Assembly: GCA_003569125.1 (NCBI GenBank) | Contig: BGOG01000003.1 | Coordinates: 49,315 to 113,314 of the forward strand | DNA: 64,000 nt | Reading direction: 5' to 3' | DNA from: Acidimicrobiaceae bacterium | Lineage (GTDB): Bacteria > Actinomycetota > Acidimicrobiia > Acidimicrobiales > Ilumatobacteraceae | In this document: piece after piece, positions 29,337 to 48,774 of the stretch | Layout: each line of letters begins with the position of its first letter | Position numbering within the stretch: the stretch's first letter is position 1 | Program-made: the position numbers and the translations under genes | The notes under the pieces: model-generated | Databases searched by the model: none | What the model was told of the DNA's origin: nothing | Seen by the model: the letters and a program-made list of their open reading frames with translations, nothing else

Positions 29337-30560
29337 TTAATCAATCCAGTCTTGGTTGTCGCGCAAGAATTGTGCGCCATATTTAGACCAAATCTCGCCG
29401 TGAAAAATCTCTCGATCTGGTCCGATGATTTCTGAATACTTTTCCCAAAACTTTTGCTGAAGTTCATCATCAATTGCTTCGCTGATCCATTTACCTTCGA
29501 GTCGATCAAGCATCTCGAGCATTAGATCTCTAATTTCAGATGGTGTGTTGCTCTTGACCGACACTCCAGCCTTGGTGAATTGCGATGTTTCACCAAATCT
29601 GGCAACGCCACGCTCGCCCATCTCAGTGAGATTCAGGCGTTTGCCCGTTGCTGTGTCAATCATTGTTTTTGCAATACCCAAATCGCATGCGCGAGACGAG
29701 TAGTACATAAAAAATGGCGAATAGTTGACGTAGGCGTTTGGCCGACGAAACATCGCAGGAATCGCGTAGAAACCTAAACCGTCAGAAACATTAAATTCAC
29801 AGTGCGCACCGAGAAAGAGATCCATAAATTCACTCCGAACTTTTGAGTTCGCATAGTCGATCACACGTGGATTGCCCGAGATAAGAGGTTTTGAAACTAC
29901 TGATCCCATGCGCAACACAAATAGACCGCGATCTGCGAGCGCCTCGGCACCTGCCACGTAGTCATTTACGTCGCAGTTTCGAAAGTCGTGATATGACATA
30001 TCTTTTTCAGGAAATGCTTTTTTCGTGTAAGCCGAATCTCGTACGATAAAACAAACGAAACGATCGGTCGGCTTTATGCCTAACTTTGCAAGACCTGCAT
30101 GGCCTTGTTTGATTTGCGTTGCCGTGAATTTAAGGCGCGGAGGGTAGACGTCTAACAAATTGTGAACATCTAAACATGTCGCAGTTGTTTTATTGATCTG
30201 GTGAGCGGCTGCGCCGGGGATCAAATTATTGAATCGAAACACCGACACCATCAACCAATTTGGCCAGATATTTAAAACTTGCTTCCACATTTTGTGGAGA
30301 ACTCGATTGGCGATCGGCTCAGGTGCAAACCAAATGTCGATCGATCGTTTTGGCCGCGAGGCCACACCGGCTTCTTGTTCAAGAAGCCAAAGTTCAGTCT
30401 CAAGAGCGAAATGACCAATTCGATCGCTGCGCATCACGCCAATTCGAACCAAAAAAAACGGCCGAATCAGGCGAATCAACACGACAAAGAAGAGCGCGAA
30501 CGGCGTCGAGAGCGCTATCCGAATTAGTCGGCTGAGTCGGTTATACGTGTTGGACTTCAA
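29337..30560 (-). CDS. Membrane-anchored putative glycosyltransferase, paralogue 1 of 3 (uncharacterised family)
   Basis: N-terminal TM helix. Shares conserved blocks with the next two genes (e.g. FVLRMGS...VIDYANS...FMDLFLGAHCEFNVS). From memory it resembles the 'TIGR04372 family putative glycosyltransferase'. The start is uncertain (TTG 30560 or 30608). Confidence 0.55.
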   Translation of the reverse strand: MKSNTYNRLSRLIRIALSTPFALFFVVLIRLIRPFFLVRIGVMRSDRIGHFALETELWLLEQEAGVASRPKRSIDIWFAPEPIANRVLHKMWKQVLNIWPNWLMVSVFRFNNLIPGAAAHQINKTTATCLDVHNLLDVYPPRLKFTATQIKQGHAGLAKLGIKPTDRFVCFIVRDSAYTKKAFPEKDMSYHDFRNCDVNDYVAGAEALADRGLFVLRMGSVVSKPLISGNPRVIDYANSKVRSEFMDLFLGAHCEFNVSDGLGFYAIPAMFRRPNAYVNYSPFFMYYSSRACDLGIAKTMIDTATGKRLNLTEMGERGVARFGETSQFTKAGVSVKSNTPSEIRDLMLEMLDRLEGKWISEAIDDELQQKFWEKYSEIIGPDREIFHGEIWSKYGAQFLRDNQDWID

Positions 30561-30564
30561 AGTT

Positions 30565-31764
30565 TTAAGCCGTCCAGTGAGGATTATTGCGAAGAAACTC
30601 TGTACCAATTAATGGCTTATGGTCATTCACGCGACTCTTAATCCCTGAAGGCGAAAGTTGGTCATATAACGACCAAAACTTTTGCTGCAACAACTTTGCC
30701 TCATTCGTCGTCTGCCAGGTGCCATTTTTGCGCGCAAGCAGTTCTTGGGTCGCCAGGGTAATTTCTTGTGGAGTGTTTTCGATGAGAGTCAAGCCTGCAC
30801 GTTGATATTCATAACTGCTTGTGCAAGAACCGAGCGCATTTTTTGATGCCACAATTTCGCTGAACGACATAAACCTTGCTTCGTCTTTGATCCAATACTG
30901 TTTGGGGATTATTAAATCATTTGGTCCATACTTGCCGAAGTTGGCGATCGGAATATAATTTGTCAAAACTCTTGGCACACGAAAAATCTCCGGGATTGAA
31001 TCGAGCCCCAAAACTGTCGAAATAAAAATTTCGCAGTTGGCAGAAAGATACACATCTAGAAAATCGGTCCTCATGCCATTTGATGCGTAGTCGATTACCC
31101 CCGGCGTGTCCAACACAAATGGTCGCTCAACTTTTGCGCCCATTCTGAAAACAAGATAACCACTAGAAACTAACCACTCGGCAACGTTTCGAAAATTACT
31201 GATGTCGTTATTGCGGTAGTCATCATGCACGATGTCACGATTCTCGAACTGGTCTCGCTTATAAGACGAGTCACGAACTGCCAAACAGACAAACTTCTGA
31301 CCTGGCGTATGTCGAACAGAATCAAGAAAATCTTCACCTTGTTTTGATTCTGAATTCAAAAATTGGATATGAGGTTGCATCTTGGGGTACAAGCCGTAGG
31401 CATCGCGATCGTGATGCGAAATTGAAAATTTAGACCCGCCAGGAAGCCTTCGTGAAATTGCATCGGCATATCTGGTTATTGGTGAATTTGAAATCTTGAT
31501 TACGCGTGACCACATCGTGTCTAATTGATTGTTGGCAACCGCATGATCCGGGTTTCGATACCAAATGTCCACTACTTTTTGAGAGTCGCCATGAATTTTC
31601 GCATCTTTCTCGCACAAGTGGATTTCTACATTCGATGCATAGTGTCCGATTTCGTGACTCGGTAGCCGACCCAATTTATAGTTACGAAACGGAGACACGA
31701 AACGAATTGCAATCGCAACGACCAATCCCGCAATTATCTGAAACGACTTGAATAGATATTTCAT
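30565..31764 (-). CDS. Membrane-anchored putative glycosyltransferase, paralogue 2 of 3
   Basis: Start set to ATG 31762-31764 (MKYLFKSFQIIAGLVV), forming an ATGA overlap with the upstream stop. Shared blocks: LVFRMGA...VIDYASN...FLDVYLSANCEIFIS. Confidence 0.55.
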   Translation of the reverse strand: MKYLFKSFQIIAGLVVAIAIRFVSPFRNYKLGRLPSHEIGHYASNVEIHLCEKDAKIHGDSQKVVDIWYRNPDHAVANNQLDTMWSRVIKISNSPITRYADAISRRLPGGSKFSISHHDRDAYGLYPKMQPHIQFLNSESKQGEDFLDSVRHTPGQKFVCLAVRDSSYKRDQFENRDIVHDDYRNNDISNFRNVAEWLVSSGYLVFRMGAKVERPFVLDTPGVIDYASNGMRTDFLDVYLSANCEIFISTVLGLDSIPEIFRVPRVLTNYIPIANFGKYGPNDLIIPKQYWIKDEARFMSFSEIVASKNALGSCTSSYEYQRAGLTLIENTPQEITLATQELLARKNGTWQTTNEAKLLQQKFWSLYDQLSPSGIKSRVNDHKPLIGTEFLRNNPHWTA

Positions 31765-33290
31765 GCTTGGGCGAAGAGTCGATGGTTGTCGAGAAAACTC
31801 TGCGAAATCGGAAGCCCACCAACGGCACCTTCGTTCAGTCGAATGTTCTGTGCTTTGGCTTGATGATCGGTCATATCCCAATTATTTTTCTCGAATCTAG
31901 AAAACATTTCAACAGCCGCATCAACCAAATCTTGCGGTGAGTTATCGATGATTTCAAAATCAATGTTTTCATGAACTGTTGATTCACACCACGGAATCGG
32001 GGTTTGCAATGTATGTTGCAATGACATCGGCAACTGTTGACTTTTGAGTTTGTAGAGTTTCGGCACCATAAATGATCTCTCAAAAAACGAACAGTGCCCA
32101 TACGAGGAATAGTTCGTTCTGATTACGGGCGTGCCAAAGCACATCGGCACCTCTGAACCCCCAGAGTTCGTGGCGATCGAAAACTTTGCTTTGGCCCACA
32201 AGAAGACATCCATCCAGTCGACGCGCTCTACTGCGTGCGCATAGTCGACGACATTCTTCATTTCTGGTAGCGGTGTCATCAGCGGGCTGCCCATTCGAAT
32301 CACCCATCCGCCACGATTTACGATCTCGTTGATCATCGGAAAATAGGTCGAAATCTCGGCATTTTGCAGGCGGGCGTGTGCTCGATGGTCGCCTTCTCGC
32401 ACATGAATAACGACGAACCACGCATCGGACGCCAGCCCCCACCGTTTGAGAATCGACATACCTCGTGCCTCAATAGAGTCGGAAAGTTTGACAACCGGCT
32501 CGCGATGTTCTTTGCTCCATGCTTGGTTGGCAATATCGATTGCCGACCACTGATCAACGATTTTTGTCCTAAGTCGATATATCGGCACATGATCGACTAT
32601 CGAATTAAATTTTTGCGTGAATTTCTCGATTAGTTTTATGTCGCTTTGGATGTTCAAAATTTTGGGTAGAAAAAGTTTGAGAAGCGAACTGTTGGACGAA
32701 TATTGCGAATCATAAAGCAGAATTCTTCGTTCGTCTGAGAGCAGATTCAGTTCTCTGAGTTTTATCACCGCGTCAAGCAAAGAGATATGACCAAGTGGTC
32801 CAGTCCAACCGTTGCCAAGAAAGCGCAGTCGCGCTTCGTCTACCGACTGCTCTCGGGCTAGTTGCTGCATCAACTGATCTGCTTCGGTTGAAACCGCGAG
32901 ATATTTCTTCCATTCACCCCGAAGAAAGTGTGTCTGCGCGTGCGCCTGTTTCAACTCAAGCGATTTTGGAAACAGTTCTGCACCTTGACGATGTTTTTCC
33001 AGGGCTTCGGCGGTCTTATTGTCTCTAATCAGGGCTCTTATCGAGTTCAAAATATCTTCAACTTTGCTCGCCGCCAAAGACTCTGATTCGTCTGCTTCGA
33101 TAGTCCGACCGACACTGCTCACGAAGTTATTTGAAATCTTGGTCAGTTTTTTCCAAAATCGTCGATCTTGAAAACTAAATCGCGAAACAAACTTCAGCAA
33201 AGCCCGTAGTTTTGAAAACTTTTTAAGAAACGCGAGAAGGTTGCCATGACGCAATTGAAACAACTGCCGTCTTATTTTTTTAATCAACAT
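31761..33290 (-). CDS. Putative glycosyltransferase, paralogue 3 of 3, with extra helical N-terminal region
   Basis: Start set to ATG 33288-33290. The C-terminal half carries the shared blocks WVIRMGS...VVDYAHA...WMDVFLWAKAKFSIA. The N-terminal ~230 aa are helical and repeat-like. Confidence 0.5.
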   Translation of the reverse strand: MLIKKIRRQLFQLRHGNLLAFLKKFSKLRALLKFVSRFSFQDRRFWKKLTKISNNFVSSVGRTIEADESESLAASKVEDILNSIRALIRDNKTAEALEKHRQGAELFPKSLELKQAHAQTHFLRGEWKKYLAVSTEADQLMQQLAREQSVDEARLRFLGNGWTGPLGHISLLDAVIKLRELNLLSDERRILLYDSQYSSNSSLLKLFLPKILNIQSDIKLIEKFTQKFNSIVDHVPIYRLRTKIVDQWSAIDIANQAWSKEHREPVVKLSDSIEARGMSILKRWGLASDAWFVVIHVREGDHRAHARLQNAEISTYFPMINEIVNRGGWVIRMGSPLMTPLPEMKNVVDYAHAVERVDWMDVFLWAKAKFSIATNSGGSEVPMCFGTPVIRTNYSSYGHCSFFERSFMVPKLYKLKSQQLPMSLQHTLQTPIPWCESTVHENIDFEIIDNSPQDLVDAAVEMFSRFEKNNWDMTDHQAKAQNIRLNEGAVGGLPISQSFLDNHRLFAQA

Positions 33291-33969
33291 TTGCGATCTC
33301 TTGGGCGCGTTGATAACTCTCTGGAGTACCAATATCGATATAAGTCTTGTCGGTTTCGACGACGTAGATGCGTTTAAATAGTTTTGGTATCACCTGATTG
33401 CTGAAATCATGTTCGGTGGTAACGCTTGCTACCAATTCGCTAGACAAAACATACAGCGCCGCGTTGGCCAGGTTGCCATGATTCTCGGGTGACTTCTCAT
33501 ACATTTTTTCTAAAATATTCTGATCGTCCAGTTCAAGAATCCCACAGGTTTGCGGCGTATCGGTACGAAAAGCAAGCATCGTCATCAAACAATTTTTCGG
33601 CCGTTGAATGTGATGCTCAATTAGTTGAGATAGATCAACTTCTGAATAGTTGTCGGCGTGAATGAACATTCCGTCTTTGCCTTGAAAGAAATTTCGGTTC
33701 GCAACCAGTGTTCCGGCCGTGCCCAGAAGTTCTGGTTCGAAAACCGTTTCGACTTTTTCACGATATGCCGCACTGGCAATATGGTCTTCGACCAACTCAT
33801 GTTTGTAATGAAGATTTACAAGAATTCTTTCAACGCCAGCTTGTAGTAACGATTCGACCCAAATATCTAAGAGTGGTTTGCCTTTGATTGGTACCAAACA
33901 TTTTGGAACCGTGTCGGTTAATGGCCTAAGGCGAGTTCCGAGTCCAGCGGCGAGAAGAACCGCTCTCAC
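33280..33969 (-). CDS. Sugar-1-phosphate nucleotidyltransferase
   Basis: 229 aa with a GTG start. LLAAGLGTRLRPLTDTVPKCLVPIKGKPLL is the NTP-transferase G-loop. The size fits HddC/GmhD-type short nucleotidyltransferases. Confidence 0.8.
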   Translation of the reverse strand: MRAVLLAAGLGTRLRPLTDTVPKCLVPIKGKPLLDIWVESLLQAGVERILVNLHYKHELVEDHIASAAYREKVETVFEPELLGTAGTLVANRNFFQGKDGMFIHADNYSEVDLSQLIEHHIQRPKNCLMTMLAFRTDTPQTCGILELDDQNILEKMYEKSPENHGNLANAALYVLSSELVASVTTEHDFSNQVIPKLFKRIYVVETDKTYIDIGTPESYQRAQEIANVD

Positions 33970-35395
33970 TCCGCCAACTCGTGCAGAAGTTCGTTTTGGT
34001 TATTGGCGTGTTGCCAACTCGTCCAACTTGAATTGCCGCTGCCAGCGAGCCGAGCAACCCTGACTCCCACATGTTTGCGCCAACCGTCATCGCCAGCGAA
34101 GTCGCGACCAGCATGCAGTCGCCAGCACCAGCAACATCGTGCGGCGCCGAATTGAGAGCAGGTATCTGATCGGTCTCCCAGTCTTTGCCCCACCGACCGT
34201 GCAACAAAACGCCTTGTTCGCCGAGTTTTAAAGTGACACTTTTTGCCTCGGCGCTCAAACAAACCAACTGTGCAATGACGACGAGTCCGTCTTCGGTATT
34301 TCGCAACGCCAATCTGGCTTCGCGTTCGGTTGGGGTTATCAAGTCTGCGTTTTTGAATCTTGAGATGTCGCCAATTTGCGATGAAGATTGACTGTCGGCG
34401 ACTATTCGCATCTTGCTTTTAGTCGCGATCTCGACGAGTTGATCGACAACGTTCTGATGCAGACATCCATAATTAAAGTCCGAAAAAATCAGCAGATCAG
34501 CATTGGCGCAGGCTTTTTTGACACTCGCCACGAGATTTTTTTGGATCGGCTCATCCACCGAGCGTTGCACCAGATGACTGACGCGCAACAAGGTCTTACC
34601 GCGACTGCGAAAGCGCTGTTTGAGGGTTGTAGGTCTCGCATCGTCGACTATCAGTTCGTGCTCGACATTGAATTTGCTTAGTTCTTCGCGACAAAACTGG
34701 GCGGATTCATCATTGCCGACGACCGAGAAATATTTGACTTTCGCACCCAGCGAGGCAGCGTGGGCCGCGACGATCGCTGCTCCACCAATAAATTTTTTGC
34801 TCGAAATCGGTGTTACAACGATCGTTGGGTCTTCTTCTGACATTCCGAGTGGATCACAAGATATGTATTCGTCAACGATCGTGTCGCCGATCACCACCAC
34901 TTGCATATTTTTCATTTTTGAGAGTAACAGCAACAACGATTTCGTCGTTACTCCACGACGGGCCATAAAGTCGCCCGGCAAAGTGATCGTCTTTGGCTCT
35001 TGAATTGCCATCTCACGGCGAAGCAAATCGAGCGAAGTAAACACCACATCACCCGAACTGAACAACAGTTTTCCGCCGTAACTATCGACGGCTTCCTGCT
35101 CTGGGTTGTCTTTGGTTTTGTGCTCTTTGCCCTTGACGACTCGTGCTGGTTTAATTCGGCGAATTGCATCATTTACTGAATCGTCAATCAAGAAGGCTTC
35201 ATCGACTATCGCGTGCATCTTGACGGCCTCTAAACGAAACTCTTGCGGTACGTGTGCAGAAACACCGGCAACGCGATCACTCAAAACACCGACGACGAGC
35301 CTTTCGCCACTGTCTTTGGCGAATTTAAGCAGGCGCAAATGTCCAGGATGAAGAACATTGAAAGTGCCCGAAACAAAAACTGTGCCGTTCTTCAT
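33926..35395 (-). CDS. Bifunctional cytidylyltransferase-fold / PfkB sugar kinase protein (HldE-like domains in reversed order)
   Basis: The N-terminal part has GTFNVLHPGH (HxGH nucleotidyltransferase motif). The C-terminal part has VVVIGDTIVDEY... and DVAGAGD (PfkB kinase). The true stop may be 33966 if the tttt run at 33994-33997 is one base short. That reading gives ...TKNELLHELAE* and a GTGA overlap with the next gene. Confidence 0.8.
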   Translation of the reverse strand: MKNGTVFVSGTFNVLHPGHLRLLKFAKDSGERLVVGVLSDRVAGVSAHVPQEFRLEAVKMHAIVDEAFLIDDSVNDAIRRIKPARVVKGKEHKTKDNPEQEAVDSYGGKLLFSSGDVVFTSLDLLRREMAIQEPKTITLPGDFMARRGVTTKSLLLLLSKMKNMQVVVIGDTIVDEYISCDPLGMSEEDPTIVVTPISSKKFIGGAAIVAAHAASLGAKVKYFSVVGNDESAQFCREELSKFNVEHELIVDDARPTTLKQRFRSRGKTLLRVSHLVQRSVDEPIQKNLVASVKKACANADLLIFSDFNYGCLHQNVVDQLVEIATKSKMRIVADSQSSSQIGDISRFKNADLITPTEREARLALRNTEDGLVVIAQLVCLSAEAKSVTLKLGEQGVLLHGRWGKDWETDQIPALNSAPHDVAGAGDCMLVATSLAMTVGANMWESGLLGSLAAAIQVGRVGNTPITKTNFCTSWRSESGSSRRWTRNSP

Positions 35396-36254
35396 GACCT
35401 GGTAATTTTCTCCATTATTTGATGAACAGATTGCAAAGACGACGTCGGCTCGATCGACGAGAACACACTTGATTCTAGCGACGAATGGGCGATTGCATTA
35501 TCGCCGGCATCTTGTGCCAATTGACGAATCACATTAGATATCGGCGACTTGGCGTATTCTGCAATCACACAGGCCAAATCAAAAAAGAAATCTCATCTAC
35601 CGCCGAGAATTGAACGACCGGTTCACATTCGGTTACCAGCACGCGCTCGATCACATCGACCGCGGTGCCAACTGTGATTGGACTCAGTGCCATATCAGTA
35701 AATGCCGCAATTTTTTCGTTGGCTGAAAGTTTGTTGAACCAGTCAATGATTAATTCACTATGTTCAGAAATAACTTTTGCGAATCGCACGATCTTCACTG
35801 ATTCACCAAGCGAAAGCAGTTCTGTCTCGGCTTGCGCTTTCTGGCGGCCATATTCAGTCGTCGGGCTATGGGTCGACCTGATCTTTGTCAGCTCGGTCGA
35901 GCCATCAAAGACTCGGTTGCTCGAGATCAGAATAATTCTCGCAGAATTGGCAGAAAGAAGTTCTTTGGCAATCGCGACTTGCGCGTCAACATTGACCAAC
36001 GATGTCGTTTCTGGATTCATCCGACATGCTCGTATCGAACTCACTCCGGCTGACAAAACTACTGCGTCGAAGTCTCCGGCATCACTAATAGTTTTTACCG
36101 AATCTGAGATATTTTCTAAATTAAGCGCAAGCGTCGAGTCATTGTGTGCAGATGACTGACGAGAAGTGATGACCACATCGTGACCATTTCGAATCAAAGT
36201 CTTTTTCAGATCTGACCCAATGACTCCGGTGCCACCGACGATTAGCACTCTCAC
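35392..36254 (-). CDS. NAD(P)-dependent SDR epimerase/reductase (reading frame broken once)
   Basis: GTG start at 36252-36254 (GTGA overlap). VLIVGGTGVIGSDL is a Rossmann motif. ORFs 35565-36278 and 35392-35577 join as ...DEISFFDLACVIAEYAK... if the A6 run at 35581-35586 is one base short. Confidence 0.75.
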
Positions 36255-37123: not shown

Positions 37124-37126
37124 TGA

Positions 37127-37792: not shown

Positions 37793-37795
37793 TGA

Positions 37796-38197
37796 TTAAA
37801 CTTCAACTTTTGAAATGCAGTGGTCAAGAGTCGTCTTAACCAACAGACATTGCTCGACCGAATCGATATCTGATGGCTTCGTAATCGACATTCCTTCGAC
37901 CGCAAAATGTAGAGATTTTCCCGATTTAAGAGCGCGTGAATAAACAGAACTTCGCTGTTTTGATTGCGTTGGCAGTTGATAGAGACTATAAAACACGACT
38001 CCGTCGACGCTATCTAGATCGTCTAATACTGACTCTAAAATCATCGATGAGTCAGGCATTGCATACTCTGTTGCCGCAAGCAACAGTTCAAAACCTTTTT
38101 TATTGCAATAGTCACGCAAAATAATATTTTGCACATGCTGTGGCGCTCTCTCGCCCATAAACGGGCGAGCAAAAATGTAGCCCCGTAATTTTTTCAT
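37796..38197 (-). CDS. Small conserved hypothetical protein of carbohydrate clusters
   Basis: 133 aa and soluble. MKKLRGYIFARPFMGERAPQHVQNIILRDYC... From memory it resembles the 'sporadic carbohydrate cluster protein, LIC12192 family'. There is no catalytic motif I can name. Confidence 0.4.
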   Translation of the reverse strand: MKKLRGYIFARPFMGERAPQHVQNIILRDYCNKKGFELLLAATEYAMPDSSMILESVLDDLDSVDGVVFYSLYQLPTQSKQRSSVYSRALKSGKSLHFAVEGMSITKPSDIDSVEQCLLVKTTLDHCISKVEV

Positions 38198-38990
38198 GAG
38201 ATTTTTGGAAGTTCGTATGACATGCCACGCCGAGATGCAGGACGCAATGTAATCGGCTCAAAAAATTCTCCAGGCTTCTTGTCGCCATACGGCGTGAACA
38301 CTCCCTTGAATCGGCAATTCATCGACCAGCGAGTTTCAGTTTCTTCGTTTAGACGATTGCCATGTGGAAGCGACTGATCAAAAACCAATACCTGACCACT
38401 TTTGACTTCGAGCCATTTGACCTCGGTTTTGATTGAGTCGAAAATAGATTCGCTGCTACTTCCACCACGCTTGCTGAACTCATCTGAAAATTTTGCAGAC
38501 TCGATTGGAGGCAAAAGGTACATCGCCTTCGTCCCGAAACAATCAACTAAAGGCAACCAAACCACGACTTCAAACGGTGAGTCTCCCGACCACGTGTCTG
38601 CGTGTACCGGCAACAATGAACTCGTGTCGTTCGGCATTTGAATGCTCAAGTTGATGCGTTGCTGCATTGCGAGTTCATTGCCGACGATTGCTTCTAATAA
38701 GGTTTCGCTAATCGAAAGTACATCAACCGAAATTCTGCGAGTGCGTTCAGACCTTGAATGACTTTTAATCTGAAGTCATTAAGTTTTGATGGTTCGACAA
38801 GATTATGAATTTCATTCAAAAACTTTTCGCTGTCAGCTGGTTGCTCAATGCCCAGGGCACCTGCCGCGACACTGGCTGCATTCTGCTGAATCCATTTATA
38901 CGCTTCGTTGTCGGCGTTTGGTCTGATTATGTAACCAAATTTCAAATATTCGTCGGCAATCGCGAGATCTTCATCTGAGGTGAATACCAC
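38194..38990 (-). CDS. PhyH-like 2OG-Fe(II) oxygenase (reading frame broken once)
   Basis: ORFs 38694-39050 and 38194-38667. Candidate HxD...H triad: LPVHADTW and LPHGN. The frames join as ...RLAKPYLEAIVGNELAMQQRINL... if one base is added at 38696-38700. The start is probably GTG 38988-38990, just after the transketolase stop. Confidence 0.6.
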
Positions 38991-38992
38991 AA

Positions 38993-39919: not shown

Positions 39920-39964
39920 TTGCGATCACCATTTTCAAAGTTGCATTGTCGTGCAAGAGTTTCA

Positions 39965-40768
39965 TCAGAGGCAGTCGTACATCTGTTGAATATCGGTCTC
40001 GGTCATTCCAGATTTGTGATGCCACTCGGGGTTTCCCTCAGCAAACGGAAAACCCTTTCCTTTGATCGTGTGGCAAATTATCGCCGATGGCGCGTTGTTC
40101 GAAAATGGCAGTTTTTTAAGAATTGCTTCGAGGGCCGCGACATCGTGACCGTCAACTTCGTGTGTGACAAAACCAAAACTCTTGAACTTGTCGACAAGCG
40201 GTTCGAGATCCAATACTTCAGAGGTCTTGCCATAACTCTGCAACTTGTTGTAATCAACCATCACGGTCAGATTTGACAGTTTGTGTTTCGATGCTGCCAT
40301 GCCCGCCTCCCAATTGGAGCCCTCATTTATTTCGCCATCACCCGTTAAAACGAAAACTCGGCTGTTGCGTTTTTGCAAGCGCATCGCAAGTGCGAGCCCA
40401 ACTGCGATCGGTACGCCATGACCGAGCGCACCAGTTGACGCTTCAACTCCTGGCACTTTGCCACGCTCAGGGTGGCCACCAAGTCGTGATGTTGGCCGAC
40501 AAAAACTCTCGAGTTCACTGATCGGAAAAAACCCTTTATCGGCCAAAATCGCATAAAGAGCGAGACAGCCGTGACCTTTACTCAATACGAAACGATCTCG
40601 GTCAGTCGATTCTGGATGTTTCGGATCATATTTGAGCACCGAGTCGTATAGCACTCGCAAAATTTCGATCATCGACATTGACGACCCGAGATGACCCCGC
40701 CCGCCGCCACGCATCGCGTCAATGACATATCTGCGCAATAATTTTGATCGGTCATCCATCTGCATCAC
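39965..40768 (-). CDS. Transketolase, N-terminal (ThDP-binding) subunit
   Basis: 267 aa. GGHLGSSMSMIEILRVLY, LSKGHGCLALYAIL, GDGEINEGSNWEA. Confidence 0.85.
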   Translation of the reverse strand: MMQMDDRSKLLRRYVIDAMRGGGRGHLGSSMSMIEILRVLYDSVLKYDPKHPESTDRDRFVLSKGHGCLALYAILADKGFFPISELESFCRPTSRLGGHPERGKVPGVEASTGALGHGVPIAVGLALAMRLQKRNSRVFVLTGDGEINEGSNWEAGMAASKHKLSNLTVMVDYNKLQSYGKTSEVLDLEPLVDKFKSFGFVTHEVDGHDVAALEAILKKLPFSNNAPSAIICHTIKGKGFPFAEGNPEWHHKSGMTETDIQQMYDCL

Positions 40769-42392
40769 AAAACTGTCCGATCGGCATTCTTCAACATCAA
40801 CTTTGCTTTCTCTAATTGCTTCAACTGTGCACCACGAATATCAGATTGCATTCTACTCTGCGCATTCAAACGGTTCTTTATCTTGTCGGTTCTGTATTCA
40901 TTCAACAGAATCAACGCCCATCTAATTGCGTACAACGGGTAGAGAGCATTTAATCTCAGACCGAAATTTGGATCTTCAGCGAACAGTTTTTTGGCCTCGC
41001 TGATCCAATATTGCTGTGCATTTTCGTCCAGCGACATTCCCGGATGCAGGCAAACATCCGCGGTCAATTTGACGGGATCATCCCATCCAAAATATTCAAA
41101 ATCAAAAAACACAAGATCATTTTGTGGTGTTGCGATTGCATTATGCAGGCCAAAATCAGAGGGGCTCAAGGTCCAAAATTTCGAATCAAGAATTGCTTCG
41201 TAGTCATCAGCCATTGAACGGCGAGTGCGATCGATGGTTCTCGCCAAAGCCGATGCAAGATCGTTGTCAATGAACTCGCGCAAAGCAGAATCTTCGACCG
41301 ACTTGAGCGCGACAAGGCGATTGTTAATCTGAATTTCAATCAATGCCGGATTCAAACACGCTTCTGTCGCCTGCCCAAAAATACTTCGGGGTTCAATCGC
41401 CCGACTGGCGCGATGAAGTTTTTGGATAAAACCCACGGCCTGATCAAGATGGGTTTGTATTTGTGGATCGGCTGGTGAACCGTCTATCCACTCGATTAGC
41501 GACCAGTTGAGTTCTGAGTCAGTTTGCACCGGTTTGGGAACCCGTAATTTATTTTGCTGAAGAAATTGCAACGCCTGCCACTCAGCGTTGCGCCGCAAGC
41601 GATTATCAACTGCCAAGTCGGGGTAGACCTTGAGCGCGATTGAACCCTGATTAGTTTCAACTCGAAAAATTTTACTGTTGCCCCGGCCTTCAACACGTTG
41701 TGCGGATGAGCAATTCAACTCTGGGCAAACACTTTTCGCGCCGGCCAAGATGACGCTTGAATCAATCTCACCGAACAGTTCGTCACCAACTTCACGCCAA
41801 GACTGCATCGGTAGCATCTCCGGATTTGTCGTGGTCACCGAACCAAACAGAATCTTTCTTGTTTTTTTCGGAAATGATTTGTCGCTCAAAACTTCATCTA
41901 GGTCATCAATGAATACATCAAGTTGAAGTTCGACAATTTTATTAATTTTCTCTTCACGAGTTTCTGCATAAAAACATTCTGCAATTTAATTCTTGAGTCA
42001 GAGTCTCCAACAAGTTTTTGGTTGATCAGCCATGCTGTGGCGGCATCACGAAGAGGCGTACGAGATTCGTCGAAGTGACCGAGTTGCGTTTTGTGGCTGA
42101 CTATGAAAATTTGGTTGCCACTGGTCAACGCCCGCAACACGAACTCGTATACACCCGGATACATAGACGCAAGATCGATGAACTTGCCATACACCAAACC
42201 CTGAACTTTTTGCCAGGCGATGTCACCTTCGGGCTGTCCGAGTAGTTCAAGTTTTAAATCACGCTTCGTTTGCGTCTTGTTCAGCGCGTTTAGAGTCTTG
42301 CTTTCGTATCCGAGAATTCGTGCAACTTCTGGAAACGCTTGGTCGTAATTAGCAATCGTGTTATCAAAATCGAGGCCGATCCTCAATATCAC
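40765..42392 (-). CDS. Probable fusion of a HAD-superfamily phosphatase domain and an APH/choline-kinase-fold kinase domain (reading frame broken once)
   Basis: ORF 41898-42392 has HAD motif I (LDFDNTI) but lacks motif IV. Adding one base at the A5 run 41970-41974 gives ...NVFYAETREEKINKIVELQLDVFIDDLDEVLSDKSFPKK... That reading restores a FIDD motif and runs without a stop into ORF 40765-41889. That ORF starts only at an in-frame TTG and carries kinase motifs SDFGLHNAI and FFDFEYFGWDD. Confidence 0.6.
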
Positions 42393-43372
42393 GCCAACTT
42401 TTCGGATTGAATTCGCTTGATGTTGAAATATTTGTCGTCGGTCAACGAGTTTGGCAACAAGCCACCCTCAAGTGCATTCTTCATGTCGACAATTGCATCT
42501 CTAATCGTGTGCTGTGGCACGAAACCAAGGGTTTTAGAAATCTTTTGGGATGAAATATGGTACGAGCGGTTGTCGTCAGATGGTGACGTCACAAGCTCAA
42601 CATCATCACCCATTACATCACGCACCGAAAGTGCGAGTTCTTCGACGCTTTGATTTTCGTAACCTGCATTGAATATTTCACCGGCGATCAACTCTTTCGG
42701 CGCGTTCAGCAACACGACATACGCTTCGACCATGTCGGCGATATGAATATTCGGTCGAAGTTGCTGACCACCAAATACGGTAATTTTTCGCTTGTGAAAA
42801 GCCAGATTTGAAAGAATATTGACAACCACGTCAAGTCGTTGCCGACGAGAGTATCCGCAAACCGTGGCTGGGCGAATTGTCACGGTCGTGAATTCTGGTG
42901 ACTGATATTCGTTGATAATTTTTTCACAGTCGGCTTTGAACTTCGAATAATCGGTCAACGGCTCGAGCGACATATCTTCCGAAACGTTCGGCTCACTTTT
43001 CACGCCATAAACGGACGACGATGACGCATATATGAAGCGACTGACGCCACTTGCTTTGCTGATCTCAACCAATGGCCTAAAGGCATCAAGATTTATCGAA
43101 CGACCGAGTTCAGGGTCTAAGTCAACACTTGGGTCATTCGAAATACATGCCAAGTGAATTACAACATCATGTCCGGGAATTTCGGCTTTCAATAATTTCT
43201 GATCTCGAATATCGCCCTTGACCATTTTTAGATTTGGGTGAGAGTCAATTACATCGTCGCCGAACCACATCAAATCAATCACCGTCACCGAGTGACCATC
43301 TTTGAGCAATCGTGGCACCAACATTGAGCCCACATATCCGGCGCCGCCGGTGATAAATATTTTATTTGTCAT
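42389..43372 (-). CDS. NAD-dependent sugar epimerase/dehydratase (extended SDR)
   Basis: Start set to ATG 43370-43372 (MTNKIFITGGAGYVGS). The YxxxK motif is present (YSKFK). Confidence 0.85.
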   Translation of the reverse strand: MTNKIFITGGAGYVGSMLVPRLLKDGHSVTVIDLMWFGDDVIDSHPNLKMVKGDIRDQKLLKAEIPGHDVVIHLACISNDPSVDLDPELGRSINLDAFRPLVEISKASGVSRFIYASSSSVYGVKSEPNVSEDMSLEPLTDYSKFKADCEKIINEYQSPEFTTVTIRPATVCGYSRRQRLDVVVNILSNLAFHKRKITVFGGQQLRPNIHIADMVEAYVVLLNAPKELIAGEIFNAGYENQSVEELALSVRDVMGDDVELVTSPSDDNRSYHISSQKISKTLGFVPQHTIRDAIVDMKNALEGGLLPNSLTDDKYFNIKRIQSEKLA

Positions 43373-44354
43373 TGCTACCAAGATACTTGAACCAGTCTTG
43401 TGTCGCCGTCGCAATCGTCGCTGGTGTCCAGACGGGTGCCGACTTCCAATAATCAATATTCGCCAACACATTGTCGACACCCTGCTTGATATCGACTTTT
43501 GGCTGCCATTTCAAATCTCGGCGAATCTTCGTGATGTCGGCGTATGTGCAGTCTGGCTCACCAGGACGTTTGGGAATATAGGTGACCTCACCACCAAGAA
43601 GTTCGACCAGTCGATTCACGGAGACTGTTTCACCGCTACCCACATTAAAAATTTCTGCGCATGCCGAACTTTGTGCCGCGGTCAAAAAAGCGTTGGCGAC
43701 ATCAGTTACATACGTGAAATCTCTCGTTTGCGTACCATCGCCAACAACGGTGAATGGTTTGTTCGCTAATTTTTGTGCAAGAAAAACGCCTAATACGGCT
43801 CCATAGGTGCCAGAAGTTCGTGATCGCGGACCGTAGACATTGAATAATCTCAACGCGATGGCTGGCAAGTTATACAACTGCGCCCAGTGCATCACCAACT
43901 CTTCACCAAGTCGTTTTGTGAGTGCATACGGATATTGCGGCGAAATGTCGGCTGCTTCTGATGTCGGATATTTTTCTGGAATCCCATAACACGACGACGA
44001 AGCAGCATAAACGAATCGCTTCACACCGGCATTTTTCGCCGCTTCCAAAACATTGAACGTGCCGTCGACATTGGCTTGAAAATAATCCGTGGGTCGTTGA
44101 ATACTCGGCACGATGTCGGCAAGCGCGCCAAGGTGAAACACCCAATCGACATCTTGAAAAAGTTTTTGCCAACTACCCGACTTTGCAAAATCAGCTTCGA
44201 CCAAATCGACTTGACCGGCAACATGTGCGAGATTTTCGGGGCGACCAGTCGAGTAATTGTCGATTACGCGAACTGAAATGTTTTCGGCGAGTAAAGCATC
44301 TACCAGGTGGCTACCGATGAAGCCTGCGCCACCAGTAACTATTGCTGTCGTCAC
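43362..44354 (-). CDS. NAD-dependent nucleotide-sugar epimerase/dehydratase (extended SDR)
   Basis: 330 aa. IVTGGAGFIGSHLVDALL, YALTK (YxxxK), GDGTQTRDFTYVTDV. Confidence 0.85.
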   Translation of the reverse strand: MTTAIVTGGAGFIGSHLVDALLAENISVRVIDNYSTGRPENLAHVAGQVDLVEADFAKSGSWQKLFQDVDWVFHLGALADIVPSIQRPTDYFQANVDGTFNVLEAAKNAGVKRFVYAASSSCYGIPEKYPTSEAADISPQYPYALTKRLGEELVMHWAQLYNLPAIALRLFNVYGPRSRTSGTYGAVLGVFLAQKLANKPFTVVGDGTQTRDFTYVTDVANAFLTAAQSSACAEIFNVGSGETVSVNRLVELLGGEVTYIPKRPGEPDCTYADITKIRRDLKWQPKVDIKQGVDNVLANIDYWKSAPVWTPATIATATQDWFKYLGSNDK

Positions 44355-44370
44355 GATATTTCTCGACTGT

Positions 44371-44940
44371 CTACTTGGCGCTATTGGCGCTATCGCAAAG
44401 CCACTGCATGATCATGTGGCCGATAATTAGTTGCAAATCTTCGGCGATCTGCATGTCGTTAATTGCGAAATGCAACGGATGTTTCGCGATGTCTTTGCAT
44501 TTGCCACCAGAAAATCCAAGAATTGCAAAAGTTTCCATACCGAGTTTGTTGCCCATCTCTAGGGCGCGAACTATGTTCGGCGAATTACCGCTACCCGAAA
44601 ACACGAGCAACACGTCACCAGAGTTTGCTTTTACACGAAGTTGTTCGGCGTAAACCTCTTCGTATCCGATGTCGTTGGCAAGACATGTCAGAACTGCCGG
44701 GTTTGCCGCGAGAGATTCGATCCGCAAACCGATACCACGAGTTAGACCTGCTCCATAAATGAAGTCATTGGCCAGGTGAATCGCGTTTCCGGCGCTACCG
44801 CCGTTGCCGCAGAGATAAATCGTCTTCTTCGTATCCCACGCCTGTTTGAAGGCCGCTGCAAGATCAGGAACCTTGTTGATTGCCGGAAGCGTAAGCGCAC
44901 CAGCGAGTCGTGCCGAATAGTCAGTGATGTGTTGTTGCAT
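44371..44940 (-). CDS. gmhA: SIS-domain phosphoheptose isomerase
   Basis: 189 aa. IYLCGNGGSAGNAIHLANDF, VLLVFSGSGNSPNIV and a C-terminal IGHMIMQWLC resemble GmhA. Confidence 0.8.
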   Translation of the reverse strand: MQQHITDYSARLAGALTLPAINKVPDLAAAFKQAWDTKKTIYLCGNGGSAGNAIHLANDFIYGAGLTRGIGLRIESLAANPAVLTCLANDIGYEEVYAEQLRVKANSGDVLLVFSGSGNSPNIVRALEMGNKLGMETFAILGFSGGKCKDIAKHPLHFAINDMQIAEDLQLIIGHMIMQWLCDSANSAK

Positions 44941-44974
44941 GATCGTTACCCGTTCAAAATTAAGTTATTTGATC

Positions 44975-46195
44975 TTACTCTAAGATCGCCGACACCCTAG
45001 ATGCGATCGCGTCACCAATCGCCAAAGATGCGGTCGCCGCAGGAGACGGAGCATTGCAAACGTGCACCACTCGACCGATTTGCCTAATTTCAAAGTCATC
45101 CAACAAACTTCCTGCACGACTACAGGCTTGAGCTCGAACACCGGCACCAGTGGGTTGCAGATCATCCACAGTGATTTCTGGCACAAGTTTTTGCAGCGCG
45201 CTGACAAAAGCACGTTTGCTGAATGATCGGTGATATTCGCCAAGACCCGTGCGCCAGTATTTGAGGGCGATTTTTCTGAAACCTGGCCATGCCAAAGTTT
45301 CTGCGAATTCACGGATCGAAATATCGGTCTTGCGGTAACCCTCACGGGCAAAAGCCAAAACTGCATTCGGGCCGCATTCAATGGTGCCATCGACACGTCT
45401 CGTGAAGTGCACACCCAAAAATGGAAAATTCGGATCGGGAACAGGATAAATCAAATTACGAACAAGATGCTTTGCTGATTCTTTCAATTCAAAATATTCA
45501 CCACGAAATGGGATGATTCGCAGATCAAGTTCTGGTTGGGTCTGCATCGCAAGCCGATCAGAATGCAATCCTCCACATGTTATTAACGCTCGTGTCGTGA
45601 ATTGCTGATGCGCCGTTGAAACCAAAACCGTATTTGATGATTCTTTGATTTCTATTACTTCACTGTTCATCAGAACTTGCCCGCCGAAGTTTTGAATCCG
45701 CTCGGCAAGACGTTTTACGACCACGCCGTAGTCAACGATGCCCGTTTGTGGAACGAATAAGCCATCGATGCCGGTGCAATGCGGCTCAATTTCAATTATT
45801 TCTGTTTTGCTTAGCCGACGAATGCCGGCCAATCCATTTTGTTCACCACGCTGCCGAAGCATTTCAAGTTGTGAACGCTCTTGCTCTGATAATGCGACGA
45901 CGATCTTTCCACAAATTTCGTGGGCAATATCATGCTCGCGACAAAATTGAAGCAGTTTCGCGTAGCCCTCAATGCAGTTTTTTGCCTTCAGCGAACCGGG
46001 TTTGTAGTAGAGACCAGAGTGAATTACTCCACTGTTATGACCTGTTTGGTGCGCACCAAGTGACGTTTCTTTTTCTAGAACAACTAATTTTAAGTTTGGA
46101 TCGGCCGTGAGCAACGAGTTTGCAGTTGCGAGTCCGACGATTCCACCACCAACAATTACGACATCAAGTCGAGAATCTCGCGTCGCTTCGGTCAT
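44975..46195 (-). CDS. lhgO: FAD-dependent L-2-hydroxyglutarate oxidase-like enzyme
   Basis: 406 aa. From memory it is collinear with E. coli LhgO: VVIVGGGIVGLA, HQTGHNSGVIHSGLYYKPGSLKA, IPFRGEYFEL, IYPVPDPNFPFLGVHFTR, NAPSPAATASL. Confidence 0.8.
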   Translation of the reverse strand: MTEATRDSRLDVVIVGGGIVGLATANSLLTADPNLKLVVLEKETSLGAHQTGHNSGVIHSGLYYKPGSLKAKNCIEGYAKLLQFCREHDIAHEICGKIVVALSEQERSQLEMLRQRGEQNGLAGIRRLSKTEIIEIEPHCTGIDGLFVPQTGIVDYGVVVKRLAERIQNFGGQVLMNSEVIEIKESSNTVLVSTAHQQFTTRALITCGGLHSDRLAMQTQPELDLRIIPFRGEYFELKESAKHLVRNLIYPVPDPNFPFLGVHFTRRVDGTIECGPNAVLAFAREGYRKTDISIREFAETLAWPGFRKIALKYWRTGLGEYHRSFSKRAFVSALQKLVPEITVDDLQPTGAGVRAQACSRAGSLLDDFEIRQIGRVVHVCNAPSPAATASLAIGDAIASRVSAILE

Positions 46196-46212
46196 TTCTT
46201 AGTGCTGCTCGT

Positions 46213-47971
46213 TTAACCACTTCGTCGAAAAGTGCCCTGTTCGGTCAAACGCGAATCTTCAATTCGATACAGGCGATCGCAATATTCAACCGTGCTGAGT
46301 CGGTGAGCGACGATGATCACCGTTTTAGAACCTTGTAACGCCTGCACTGCCTGCATCACGCCGTGTTCGGTTGGCGTATCTAGAGAACTGGTTGCTTCGT
46401 CGAGAACCAAGACACTTGGGTTGTGATATAGCGCTCGTGCGATTCCGATTCGTTGTCGTTGTCCGCCAGAAAGTCGAACCCCACGCTCGCCCACGACCGT
46501 GCCGAGTTTCTCTGGCAACGACGACACGAACTCTTCAAGTTGTGCAAGGCGGATTGCGGCGACGACTGCTTGCTCATCAATATTCTCGTCGCCGAGACCA
46601 AACGCCACATTACGACGCAAAGTGTCGTCGGTCAGATAAATAGTTTGCGGCACGTAGCCGATTTGGTTTTGCCAATTTCTCAGGTTGTCTTGGATGTCAT
46701 CACCGTCAACTAATACGGTGCCCGATGTCGGCGCGAAGAGCCCAAGAATTACGTCGACGAGCGTACTCTTACCAGCACCACTTGGCCCAACGAATCCAAC
46801 TGCCTCACCACGACGCACGACTAACGAAACGTCTTGCAGAGAGGGTCTGACCGCAGTCGGGTATTGAAAGCCAAGATTCTTAAGTTCTAGTTGGTCTTTT
46901 GAACGGTATGACGGTCTTATTTTCCGGCGTATCGGGCGCATCGAGTTTGAAGTCTTCGTAAACGGAACTAATAATTGCGCGACTAAAAATTAGCGTCTGC
47001 AGAGAACCAAGCAGACGATTGATCGACGGCATGACTCGAAATGCTGCTGCCGCAAACAAGCCGAGCGTCGGAATTATCTCGGTGAATGATTGTTTTTGCA
47101 GAACCATACTGATGACCAGTGCGCTCAACCCGGTGATCGTGAGGATCTCCATCCAAACTCGTGGCACGCTCTGCAGCACCGTGTAAACACGACTAATTCG
47201 CAAACTTTCGTTGAGATGTTTTTCGTGCTGTGCAAGAAATTCGCTTTCGCGACCAAGGATCTTGACGTCTTTTGCACCTCCTAGGCCTTGCTGAAGATGT
47301 TGCAGAATCATTCCGTCATGGGTATTTTTCTCGTCACCCCATTTATCGATTCGCTTTTTTGTTAATTTTTGAAATGTCAATGCCCCCGCGCCAAAAGTAA
47401 CAATCGTGATCAAAGTACCGACCGGTTCAATCACGATCAAAAGTGTGAACAAGGCGATTGCGACCAGCCCGTCGGTGAGAAGAACCAGTGTCGGATCAAT
47501 TCCGCCTGACACGACGACATTCGCATTGCGCGAATTTCGCATCAATGTCGACGAGTTGTGTTGCAAGTGAAACATATATGGTTGCCGCAAATAAATCGTA
47601 AATAGCCGCTGCGATAGTCGCCCCGATAGAGATGCGCTGAAACCTTTTTGAATCCACGAACTCCAGAGCAGAAAAATACTTCGCACGATGTATACGACGA
47701 CCATCAGCACCATCACAAAAATGATCAGATCTTCACGAGTCGGCGAACCTAACCAGTCGCTCAGCCACTTGTACTTTGATTCGTAATTATCTTGGGTAAG
47801 AATCGCCACGACCGGCACGACGATTCCGAGGCTTAAAGTTTCAAGAACCATGCCAACCAGAATGAGAAAGATGATTCCGATTAGGGTCCTACGCTCTGTC
47901 GCAGTCAGCAATCGCCACACAACAAACGAGTTGCGCGACTTTGAATCTGCTTGGTTCATACGATCTTTCAC
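46213..47971 (-). CDS. ABC exporter, fused TMD-NBD half-transporter (MsbA/PglK type; reading frame broken once)
   Basis: ORF 46880-47971 is a 6-TM exporter domain. ORF 46213-46941 is the NBD, with Walker A GPSGAGKST, signature LSGGQRQR and Walker B VLVLDEATS. They join as ...VIPFKDQLELKNLGFQYP if the tttt run at 46897-46900 is one base too long. Confidence 0.85.
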
Positions 47972-47998
47972 CTTACTCGCAACTTATTTTTCAATTTG

Positions 47999-48072: not shown

Positions 48073-48083
48073 TTGTATTACCG

Positions 48084-48762: not shown

Positions 48763-48774
48763 CCGACAAAATAA

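Follow-up and report, generated by a model that had tools for sequence, protein, structure and literature searches.

What kind of locus is the long run of glycan genes that separates tRNA-Trp from tRNA-Met in the genome of an Acidimicrobiaceae bacterium? The genes lie in a stretch of 64,000 nucleotides (nt) of contig BGOG01000003.1 (assembly GCA_003569125.1, positions 49,315 to 113,314 of the forward strand), here called the window, and 18 of them form a presumed operon that fills the slot between the two tRNAs. A sequence-only reading had described this segment as a strain-variable glycotype island whose product is unknown. Comparison with related loci (numbered with the prefix L) leads to a modified picture. 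We favor, as reasonably probable, the reading that the segment is a long-lived allele of a hot spot, bounded by tRNAs, at which envelope-glycan genes are replaced in freshwater Acidimicrobiia of the acIV type, and that this allele is a heptose operon. The acIV Acidimicrobiia count among the abundant bacterioplankton of fresh waters, and their envelope chemistry is not known. The same has been said of the envelope chemistry of aquatic Acidimicrobiia (PMC7771536).

The slot between tRNA-Met and tRNA-Trp has constant borders and variable contents. By Pfam and NCBIfam family assignments, it is filled with genes for envelope-polysaccharide synthesis. The frame-repaired SecE protein was used as a query against metagenome contigs, which yielded 80 loci that were annotated with ARAGORN and tblastn and that form a sample independent of the operon. 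In the 22 SecE-anchored loci that hold both tRNAs, the slot measures from ~95 nt to 6.9 kb, compared to 18.7 kb in the window. The borders, tRNA-Thr/Met on one side and tRNA-Trp-secE-nusG on the other, are kept in these 22 loci and in L087-L097, L178, and L181. The slot is empty in L101 (~95 nt). It contains only the ATP-binding cassette (ABC) exporter gene in L102, L114, L156, and L172-L174 (~1.8 kb), the ABC gene and GmhA in L103, L122, and L125-L127 (~2.4 kb), and the ABC gene with one other gene in L106, L129, L134, and L175 (~2.9-3.9 kb). The series ABC-LhgO-GmhA-Epi2-HldEL-NTP, called the seven-gene version, occupies ~6.9 kb in L110. Where the secE-nusG flank has 83.5-85% identity to that of the window, at least three other slot states occur, and this distance is comparable to that of L087, whose flank is 89.5% identical.

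Slot contents also differ between sister lineages with nearly identical flanks. The downstream flanks of L101, L102, and L103 are 97.4-97.7% identical, and their slots are empty, occupied by the ABC gene only, and occupied by the ABC gene and GmhA, respectively. Between L102 and L103 the ABC gene itself has no more than 66-79% identity. A comparison of L107 with L108 shows 98.5% identity that begins ~70 nt upstream of tRNA-Trp and continues downstream; ahead of this position the two are unrelated, with an NTP-transferase gene next to tRNA-Trp in one and a glycosyltransferase gene in the other. The breakpoints of the slot fall directly after tRNA-Met and just before tRNA-Trp. Smaller units appear to be exchanged as well. 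L100 keeps a frame of Epi2, the dehydrogenase related to Protein Data Bank (PDB) entry 6vo6, HldEL, and NTP, and its central module is swapped. This module (L100:1852-6129) encodes two DegT/DnrJ/EryC1 aminotransferases and an E1alpha/E1beta pair dependent on thiamine diphosphate (ThDP), and it occupies the place of the HAD-APH/transketolase/2OG/LIC12192/methyltransferase/cupin/reductase block. The clean breakpoints at the tRNAs and the divergent cassettes between near-identical flanks suggest cassette exchange. The tRNA-Tyr/Thr/Met and tRNA-Trp-secE-nusG-rplKA flanks would serve as homology arms, and homologous recombination between them would exchange entire cassettes or sub-modules, with no need for an integrase. 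Comparison of the tRNA-Trp-to-tRNA-Met interval among relatives, which the sequence-only reading had proposed, thus points to a flexible glycan locus in the family. The slot is compact, framed by tRNAs, and legible from short metagenome contigs, which makes it a practical marker of glycotype diversity in lakes, and probably of phage-receptor diversity too.

In contrast to the slot, the operon of the window is conserved. Complete collinear operons with the same tRNA borders are found at 99.0% nucleotide identity (L178), 95.6% (L181), 84.5% (L087-L090), 77.6% (L091), and 67-76% (L094-L097). In L181 the divergence is the same in the operon (95.6%) and in the secE-rpoB flank (95.4%), and six short contigs are 98.4-99.3% identical to the window over ABC-LhgO-GmhA. 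Flexibility was therefore claimed correctly for the slot in this family; strain variability is not supported for the operon, which has the same 18 genes at the same site over this entire range; that the product is uncharacterized also holds. Judged by these sequence comparisons, the operon appears to be a long-lived allele that is widespread and old.

The same conservation could mean that this is an ordinary core envelope operon of the genus, vertically inherited and outside the flexible genome, with tRNA borders that are incidental. Genes, order, and borders that persist down to ~70% identity fit this explanation, as do divergence congruent with that of the flanks, a composition indistinguishable from theirs, and the absence of mobility genes. 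It does not account for the lineages at 83.5-85% flank identity, which carry the seven genes, a GmhA-terminated version, or different glycosyltransferases, nor for the sister lineages that swap slot content at 97-98.5% flank identity. Furthermore, L087-L097 were found by a search with an operon gene, so their number says nothing about prevalence. We regard a core operon as unlikely. The sequence-only reading had held that the same genes at the same site with the same composition in relatives would mark the segment as core rather than flexible; what is found is an operon that is conserved and native in composition, in a slot that is flexible in other lineages.

The replacement slot resembles the flexible glycan islands of other aquatic bacteria. 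In Actinomarinales the glycotype island fGI1 uses tRNAs as hot spots, and similar islands occur in Nanopelagicales (PMC7771536, Lopez-Perez et al. 2020). Like the window slot, fGI1 of 'Ca. Actinomarinales' belongs to the class Acidimicrobiia, and each occupies a conserved site in its own lineage and carries envelope-glycan genes. Both have several tRNAs inside or at the borders, content that varies among close relatives, a nuo cluster nearby, and a mode of replacement that would need no integrase. This is also the pattern of replacement flexible islands of aquatic bacteria generally (Rodriguez-Valera and Lopez-Perez). There are differences. The slot measures 0.1-19 kb, compared to 43-79 kb for fGI1; the window has no partial-tRNA direct repeats, and its drop in guanine-plus-cytosine (GC) content is marginal; and its allele is retained over divergences from species to genus level. 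The glycotype-island concept is thus extended to another lineage, and current views are not overturned: such islands are already known, and the sugar product is not.

Composition and gene content argue against a recently acquired mobile island, integrated at a tRNA gene by a site-specific recombinase. The location between tRNA genes would suit such an element, and the segment was thought to be more AT-rich than its flanks. This is the case relative to the ribosomal/rpoBC flank (GC 47.0% in the segment, 50.3% in the flank, a difference of 3.3 points) and not relative to the other flank (47.5%). Tetranucleotide frequencies of the segment correlate with those of the two flanks at r = 0.93 and 0.956, compared to 0.909 between the flanks, with the 64 kb as reference; by this reference the operon does not have the atypical composition expected of a flexible island. 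Because its GC content equals that of the other flank and its tetranucleotides are native, the AT-richness reflects GC-richer ribosomal genes rather than foreign origin. The sequence-only reading had seen no integrase, transposase, or tRNA-fragment repeat, and searches agree. No operon gene has a Pfam or NCBIfam match to an integrase or transposase, and blastn-short with the four tRNAs found no tRNA-fragment repeats of at least 15 nt in the window, only matches of 14-18 nt from tRNA to tRNA and chance matches. One gene product gives the mobile explanation some footing. The AlphaFold2 model of the LIC12192-family protein (mean predicted local distance difference test, pLDDT, 84) has a fold like the catalytic domain of serine recombinases (3guv, E = 1e-4, template modeling (TM) score 0.64). 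It lacks a DNA-binding domain, and comparison by eye with the N-terminal motif of gamma-delta resolvase places an invariant phenylalanine (Phe13) at the expected position of the serine nucleophile, with the motif arginine retained. In other lineages this protein is fused to methyltransferases. The operon is also at least as old as the split at ~70% identity. Recent integration is effectively refuted.

The ribosomal protein gene rpmG is missing from the window, as had been supposed from the sequence. A tblastn search with L33 sequences had no match anywhere in the 64 kb (E > 0.1), and the same query detects rpmG in 83 related loci. In distant relatives from a search with RplA (at most 73% identity, among the matches listed), rpmG normally lies inside a Met-Trp interval of 0.26-6.5 kb, and none of these relatives, among the matches listed, has island genes. 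The island does not explain why rpmG is absent, because the empty slot of L101 is also without it. The gene is directly upstream of tRNA-Trp in L120 (L120:47-208, SecE 82%) and in all relatives with at most 70% SecE identity, and it is missing from this position in other close relatives (L119, L122, and L123 were compared). Therefore the location of rpmG is variable in the family.

The genes of the slot are tightly packed and all lie on the minus strand (Table 1). The sequence-only reading was right about the strand and gave 16-17 genes; after frame repair, with intact L087 orthologues mapped onto the window, there are 18. Its tRNA borders agree with ARAGORN. The 4-nt ATGA/GTGA overlaps at 31761-31764, 33966-33969, 36251-36254, and 40765-40768 and the 11-nt overlap at 43362-43372 were verified, and the remaining gaps, described as under 50 nt, reach ~80 nt after repair. 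Nearly every gene of the window is on the minus strand, so co-directionality is not peculiar to the slot. A scan of the operon for promoters and terminators gave counts equal to the shuffled expectation. In order of transcription the genes encode the ABC exporter, LhgO, the GmhA-like isomerase, two short-chain dehydrogenases/reductases (SDRs; one of 4-epimerase type and one 6vo6-like), the HAD-APH protein, the N- and C-terminal subunits of a split transketolase, the 2-oxoglutarate (2OG) oxygenase, the LIC12192 protein, the methyltransferase, the cupin, the RmlD-like and HldE-like proteins, the NTP-transferase, and three TIGR04372 glycosyltransferases.

Table 1. Genes and tRNAs of the tRNA-Trp to tRNA-Tyr region, in window coordinates (aa, amino acids)
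Feature	Position	Strand	Evidence and remarks
tRNA-Trp (CCA)	29201..29274	-	ARAGORN; downstream slot border, conserved in all relatives
GT1, TIGR04372 glycosyltransferase, ~381 aa	29337..30482	-	NCBIfam 197 bits (cut-off 45); tblastn, L087 GT1 93% aa identity
GT2, TIGR04372 glycosyltransferase, 399 aa	30565..31764	-	NCBIfam 210 bits; N-terminal hydrophobic helix; modeled GT-B
GT3, TIGR04372 glycosyltransferase, ~479 aa	31761..33200	-	NCBIfam 160 bits; coordinates from L087 mapping
Sugar-1-phosphate nucleotidyltransferase (NTP-transferase), 229 aa	33280..33969	-	Pfam NTP_transferase 2.4e-35
HldE-like protein, 476 aa intact	33966..35395	-	Pfam CTP_transf_like (N-terminal) and PfkB (C-terminal); frameshift near 33986
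RmlD-like SDR reductase, 287 aa intact	35392..36254	-	Pfam RmlD_sub_bind; TIGR01214 80 bits (cut-off 224); frameshift near 35583
WbuC-like cupin protein, 290 aa	36251..37123	-	TIGR04366 34.6 bits (cut-off 42); cupin C-terminal
S-adenosylmethionine-dependent methyltransferase, 221 aa	37127..37792	-	Pfam Methyltransf_31/25/11
LIC12192-family 'sporadic carbohydrate cluster' protein, 133 aa	37796..38197	-	TIGR04323 144 bits (cut-off 55)
Sporadic-carbohydrate-cluster 2OG-Fe(II) oxygenase, 265 aa intact	38194..38990	-	TIGR04324; frameshift near 38700
Split transketolase, C-terminal (pyrimidine-binding) subunit, 308 aa	38993..39919	-	Pfam Transket_pyr and Transketolase_C
Split transketolase, N-terminal (ThDP-binding) subunit, 267 aa	39965..40768	-	Pfam Transketolase_N 4.9e-51
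Putative HAD-like/APH-family kinase fusion, 535-542 aa intact	40765..42392	-	Pfam APH; frameshift ~41920-41985
SDR homologous to PDB 6vo6/6vo8, 327 aa	42389..43372	-	phmmer against PDB
Extended SDR (UDP-hexose/HexNAc 4-epimerase or UDP-GlcA decarboxylase type), 330 aa	43362..44354	-	Pfam Epimerase 2.9e-64; best PDB matches 6dnt, 7ys8, 6wj9
GmhA-like SIS-domain sugar-phosphate isomerase, 189 aa	44371..44940	-	Pfam SIS_2
L-2-hydroxyglutarate oxidase LhgO, 406 aa	44975..46195	-	NF008726 equivalog
PglK/MsbA-type fused ABC exporter, 588 aa intact	46192..47959	-	Pfam ABC_tran; frameshift ~46898
tRNA-Met (CAT)	47998..48072	-	ARAGORN; upstream slot border with tRNA-Thr
tRNA-Thr (GGT)	48083..48156	-	ARAGORN; upstream slot border with tRNA-Met
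Two tandem GT2-family paralogues	48588..50545	-	Pfam Glycos_transf_2; BLASTP 71% aa identity; direct repeats spaced 932 nt
tRNA-Tyr (GTA)	50596..50681	-	ARAGORN

Five of the 18 genes are broken by single-base insertions or deletions (indels), at the approximate sites given in Table 1, and the ABC gene has an extra compensating pair at 46227 and 46198. Genes of the flank are broken as well: secE (28835-28860), nusG (28100-28771), rplK (27656-28068), and rpoC (19755-19801). In L178, a short-read contig that is 99.0% identical, every gene is intact, including these four. The alignment of the window with L178 has 13 gaps over 21.2 kb, or ~1 single-base indel per 1.6 kb, and homopolymers adjoin all three of the indels that were inspected. 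The indels are attributed to assembly error because essential genes are hit and L178 is intact; real pseudogenes were rejected as an explanation for the same reasons. The window comes from an error-prone assembly, probably of long reads, and readings of it that are based on open reading frames consequently need frame repair. For example, the window fragments of the 2OG oxygenase score 227 and 59 bits with TIGR04324, and the intact L087 orthologue scores 320 (cut-off 150). The HAD-APH gene is a single gene of 535-542 aa in L087, L091, L094, and L178, and the ABC gene is intact in L001 and L002.

The enzymes encoded by the operon suggest the synthesis of a heptose-derived sugar. The sequence-only reading had described heptose-type activation enzymes mixed with families of uncharacterized product, and the latter, TIGR04323, TIGR04324, and TIGR04372, are confirmed by NCBIfam models. 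Five proteins point to heptose: the GmhA-like isomerase, the HldE-like protein, the 6vo6-like SDR, the TIGR04372 proteins with their GT9-like fold, and LhgO. The top matches of the isomerase are all SIS proteins of the GmhA/DiaA type. The SDR has 6vo6 as its best PDB match (E = 9e-37, residues 1-300 of both; the next match is at 2.4e-25), and its YxxxK motif reads YSKFK, aligned to YGIDK of 6vo6. The AlphaFold2 model of GT2 (pLDDT 88.6) is a two-domain, GT-B-like fold with 35 PDB matches at E <= 1e-3. Glycosyltransferases of family GT9, which includes heptosyltransferases, are on top, and the best are TibC, a Veillonella GT9, WaaC, and WaaF (E ~1e-5, TM 0.33-0.51). LhgO passes the NF008726 equivalog at 554 bits (cut-off 299) over profile positions 2-388 of 389.

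The presence of LhgO may be explained by the reaction of the dehydrogenase. We take 6vo6/6vo8 to be Cj1427 of Campylobacter jejuni, a GDP-heptose C4-dehydrogenase coupled to alpha-ketoglutarate. Cj1427 has a ping-pong mechanism in which tightly bound NADH is re-oxidized by alpha-ketoglutarate to give L-2-hydroxyglutarate (PMC10680097, PMC7949155). LhgO in the same operon could therefore regenerate alpha-ketoglutarate, and it is a possible recycler for dehydrogenases of the Cj1427 type.

A pathway can be proposed for the operon. Sedoheptulose 7-phosphate would be converted to a heptose phosphate by the GmhA-like isomerase. Nucleoside diphosphate-heptose would then be made by the HldE-like kinase/nucleotidyltransferase, by the HAD-APH kinase with the NTP-transferase, or by both routes. 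The 6vo6-like SDR would oxidize C4 with alpha-ketoglutarate as the hydride sink, and LhgO would re-oxidize the L-2-hydroxyglutarate. Tailoring of the resulting 4-keto sugar may involve the cupin and RmlD-like proteins, the 2OG oxygenase, and LIC12192 with the methyltransferase; the split transketolase could contribute as well. A short glycan would be assembled by the three membrane-anchored GT-B transferases, with their GT9-like folds, and then flipped or exported by the PglK/MsbA-type ABC protein. The operon contains neither a priming transferase nor a polymerase among its 18 genes, so an acceptor or lipid-carrier step must be encoded elsewhere.

Several observations weigh against the reading of the segment as a heptose operon in a replacement slot. 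The heptose equivalogs are all missed: the GmhA-like isomerase scores 98 bits with TIGR00441 (cut-off 209), the HldE-like protein scores 200 bits with the kinase-domain model TIGR02198 (345), 55 bits with TIGR02199 (181), and 173 bits with NF008454 (521), and the HldD model gives 130 bits (275). The NTP-transferase matches HddC, ManC, and MurU, all under the equivalog cut-offs (HddC 94 bits, cut-off 300). The match of GT2 to GT9 enzymes is weak, with TM scores of 0.33-0.51 and 10-15% identity, and GT-B is a common fold. The equivalence of 6vo6 and Cj1427 is an assumption. LhgO is present without a 6vo6-like SDR gene in L110, and in another lineage a homologue with 59% identity lies downstream of nusG (L132:~2369), so LhgO is not strictly tied to this dehydrogenase. 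As for the locus, the 18 genes are presumed to be co-transcribed from gene packing only, and recombination at the slot is deduced from sequence patterns. Within the window's own species, no variation of the operon was seen among nine partial contigs (L178-L180 and L001-L006, 98.4-99.6% identical), all of which are collinear with the window.

These scores leave some room for a sugar that is not a heptose, with a different phosphosugar as the substrate (for instance a ketose-derived hexose, an octose, or a branched sugar), in which case the likeness to heptose enzymes would be at the level of families only. The HldE-like protein has a domain order reversed from that of HldE, with the cytidylyltransferase-like domain first and PfkB second, and the central module is a cassette of uncharacterized TIGRFAMs. 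In L100 the E1alpha/beta ThDP pair replaces the transketolase directly after the 6vo6-like SDR, which hints at carbon-carbon chemistry on a 4-keto sugar. On the other hand, heptose enzymes are the best characterized relatives in five cases: GmhA, both HldE domains, 6vo6 (taken as Cj1427), and the GT9 fold. A non-heptose sugar is rather improbable on this evidence, if still a serious alternative.

With a heptose sugar as the preferred reading, the operon can be compared with two known pathways. The capsular heptose pathway of C. jejuni (GmhA/HddA/GmhB/HddC, Cj1427 (MlghA), Cj1430, and Cj1428; PMC10680097, PMC7949155) shares with it a GmhA-like isomerase, a nucleotidyltransferase, and a 6vo6-like SDR, and the cupin, RmlD-like protein, and methyltransferase match the order of 4-oxidation, epimerization, reduction, and O-methylation. 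Unlike C. jejuni, the window has no GHMP kinase HddA and has PfkB and APH kinases instead, in addition to the missed equivalog cut-offs. It adds LhgO, the split transketolase, the 2OG oxygenase, and LIC12192, and its exporter is a half transporter of the PglK/MsbA type rather than KpsMT. The literature was also searched for heptose O-antigen clusters that include a transketolase, and nothing relevant was found. The ADP-heptose pathway of the lipopolysaccharide inner core (GmhA, HldE, GmhB, HldD, WaaC/WaaF) has counterparts in the GmhA-like isomerase, the HldE-like domains, and the GT9-resembling model. In contrast to that pathway, the window has the reversed HldE-like order, no HldD equivalog, and no Pfam GT9 sequence match, and its actinobacterial host is not known to have lipopolysaccharide.

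The central module belongs to what NCBIfam calls the sporadic carbohydrate cluster. TIGR04323, TIGR04324, and TIGR04372 are families whose definition drew on Leptospira O-antigen loci, among others, and all three score above their curated cut-offs in the window, where the TIGR04323 and TIGR04324 genes are adjacent with a 4-nt overlap. Within the literature collection searched, no paper mentions TIGR04372, TIGR04323, TIGR04324, LIC12192, or 'sporadic carbohydrate cluster'. The window goes beyond the named families, which here stand beside heptose-type genes, LhgO, and a split transketolase in abundant freshwater Actinomycetota. In other lineages LIC12192 was found fused with a methyltransferase. 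A search for LIC12192 homologues gave 323 matches; identities of the top 120 span 74-99%, and those with a named source are from Ilumatobacteraceae, Acidimicrobiaceae, or Actinobacteria metagenome-assembled genomes. With the exact GT2 match given below, these names place the window in a freshwater member of the acIV-type Acidimicrobiia. An exhaustive search gave 582 representatives of the family, some of which are fusions. P0246 is LIC12192 fused to the orthologue of the window's adjacent methyltransferase. It is 48% and 52% identical to the two window genes, and its C-terminal half is matched by the methyltransferase over the full length of the latter (52%). Of the proteins examined (P0241, P0246, P0309), P0241 has LIC12192 duplicated in tandem. 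By the Rosetta stone principle, the fusion in P0246 suggests that LIC12192 works together with the neighboring methyltransferase. A role for LIC12192 as an active serine recombinase that mobilizes the cassette was considered and rejected, in view of the invariant phenylalanine, the lack of a DNA-binding domain, the overlapping gene, and the methyltransferase fusions. These results provide leads for uncharacterized NCBIfam families, with LIC12192 as a methyltransferase partner and TIGR04372 as GT9-like transferases.

A more specific proposal is an undescribed higher-carbon or branched sugar derived from heptose, with a dedicated LhgO redox shuttle, carbon-carbon bond formation by the transketolase, and LIC12192 as an obligate partner of the methyltransferase. 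We consider this combination speculative and quite unlikely.

The genes of the operon diverge at different rates. Across L091 and L094, the GmhA-like isomerase, both SDRs, both transketolase subunits, the 2OG oxygenase, the methyltransferase, and the HldE-like protein have 84-98% aa identity, and the glycosyltransferases, cupin, RmlD-like protein, HAD-APH protein, and NTP-transferase have 45-75%. The GmhA-like isomerase is the most conserved slot gene (88-98% aa identity across lineages) and is kept in the minimal 2.4-kb version. GT3 is the fastest-evolving operon gene, with 50% aa identity in L094 compared to 84-91% for precursor enzymes. This split would be expected if linkage and decoration of the glycan diversify faster than the supply of its precursor.

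Some gene products add details to the annotation. The HAD-like N-terminal segment of the APH fusion is a putative assignment from a DxDxT motif (DFDNT) read in the sequence. The WbuC-like cupin protein has no Pfam match, and no function is assigned to its N-terminal half. PDB sequence searches with this protein and with a TIGR04372 glycosyltransferase gave no match. The top NCBIfam matches of the ABC exporter are PglK, MsbA, and HepA, all below cut-off. A tblastn search of 72,556 plasmids with the 2OG oxygenase found no match. The GT2 protein matches P0121, 'EMGBS4_04110 [Acidimicrobiaceae bacterium]', at 100% identity, and the exact LhgO protein occurs in six metagenome contigs.

Glycan genes are also found in gaps next to the slot. 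The gap between tRNA-Thr and tRNA-Tyr, which holds two tandem glycosyltransferase paralogues in the window (Table 1), appears to be a further variable glycan slot; in L101, L103, L106, L122, and L125 these tRNAs are so near each other that no gene would fit. In five relatives a TIGR04372-like glycosyltransferase gene that is 28-31% identical to GT1/GT2 is found 2.0-2.1 kb past the start of nusG (L100:~11850, L109:~3510, L110:~11680, L111:~3925, and L112:~3240), a position taken as just past rplK-rplA. This indicates that glycan genes are inserted within the string of ribosomal-protein genes; there are none at this place in the window.

The gap between tRNA-Trp and secE is variable too, and in different loci it contains a protein of 326-343 aa, an Lcl_C protein, HipBA, or a GT2-family glycosyltransferase. 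The 326-343-aa protein is conserved, has a P-loop-like motif (GLWGSGKQL), and has no Pfam or NCBIfam match. It is found at L181:12680-13657, L110:7268-8299, L111:504-1535, L116:1247-2278, L094:19214-20245, L091:19482-20096, and L100:8449-9487. It is thus present in L181, which is 4.4% diverged, and absent from the window, L178, and L087. L117 has a HipB-like/HipA toxin-antitoxin pair in this gap (L117:2195-3708), L128 has a GT2 gene, and L110 has a secreted protein with an Lcl_C domain. Elsewhere in the window, positions 53000-58000, just before the nuoLMN genes, have a low GC content (0.43-0.48). This region includes a fragmentary epimerase frame of which only the C-terminal part is present (54044-54634), a 470-aa open reading frame with no family match (55883-57295), and an EamA gene (54994-55890) that is the only clear plus-strand gene of the window.

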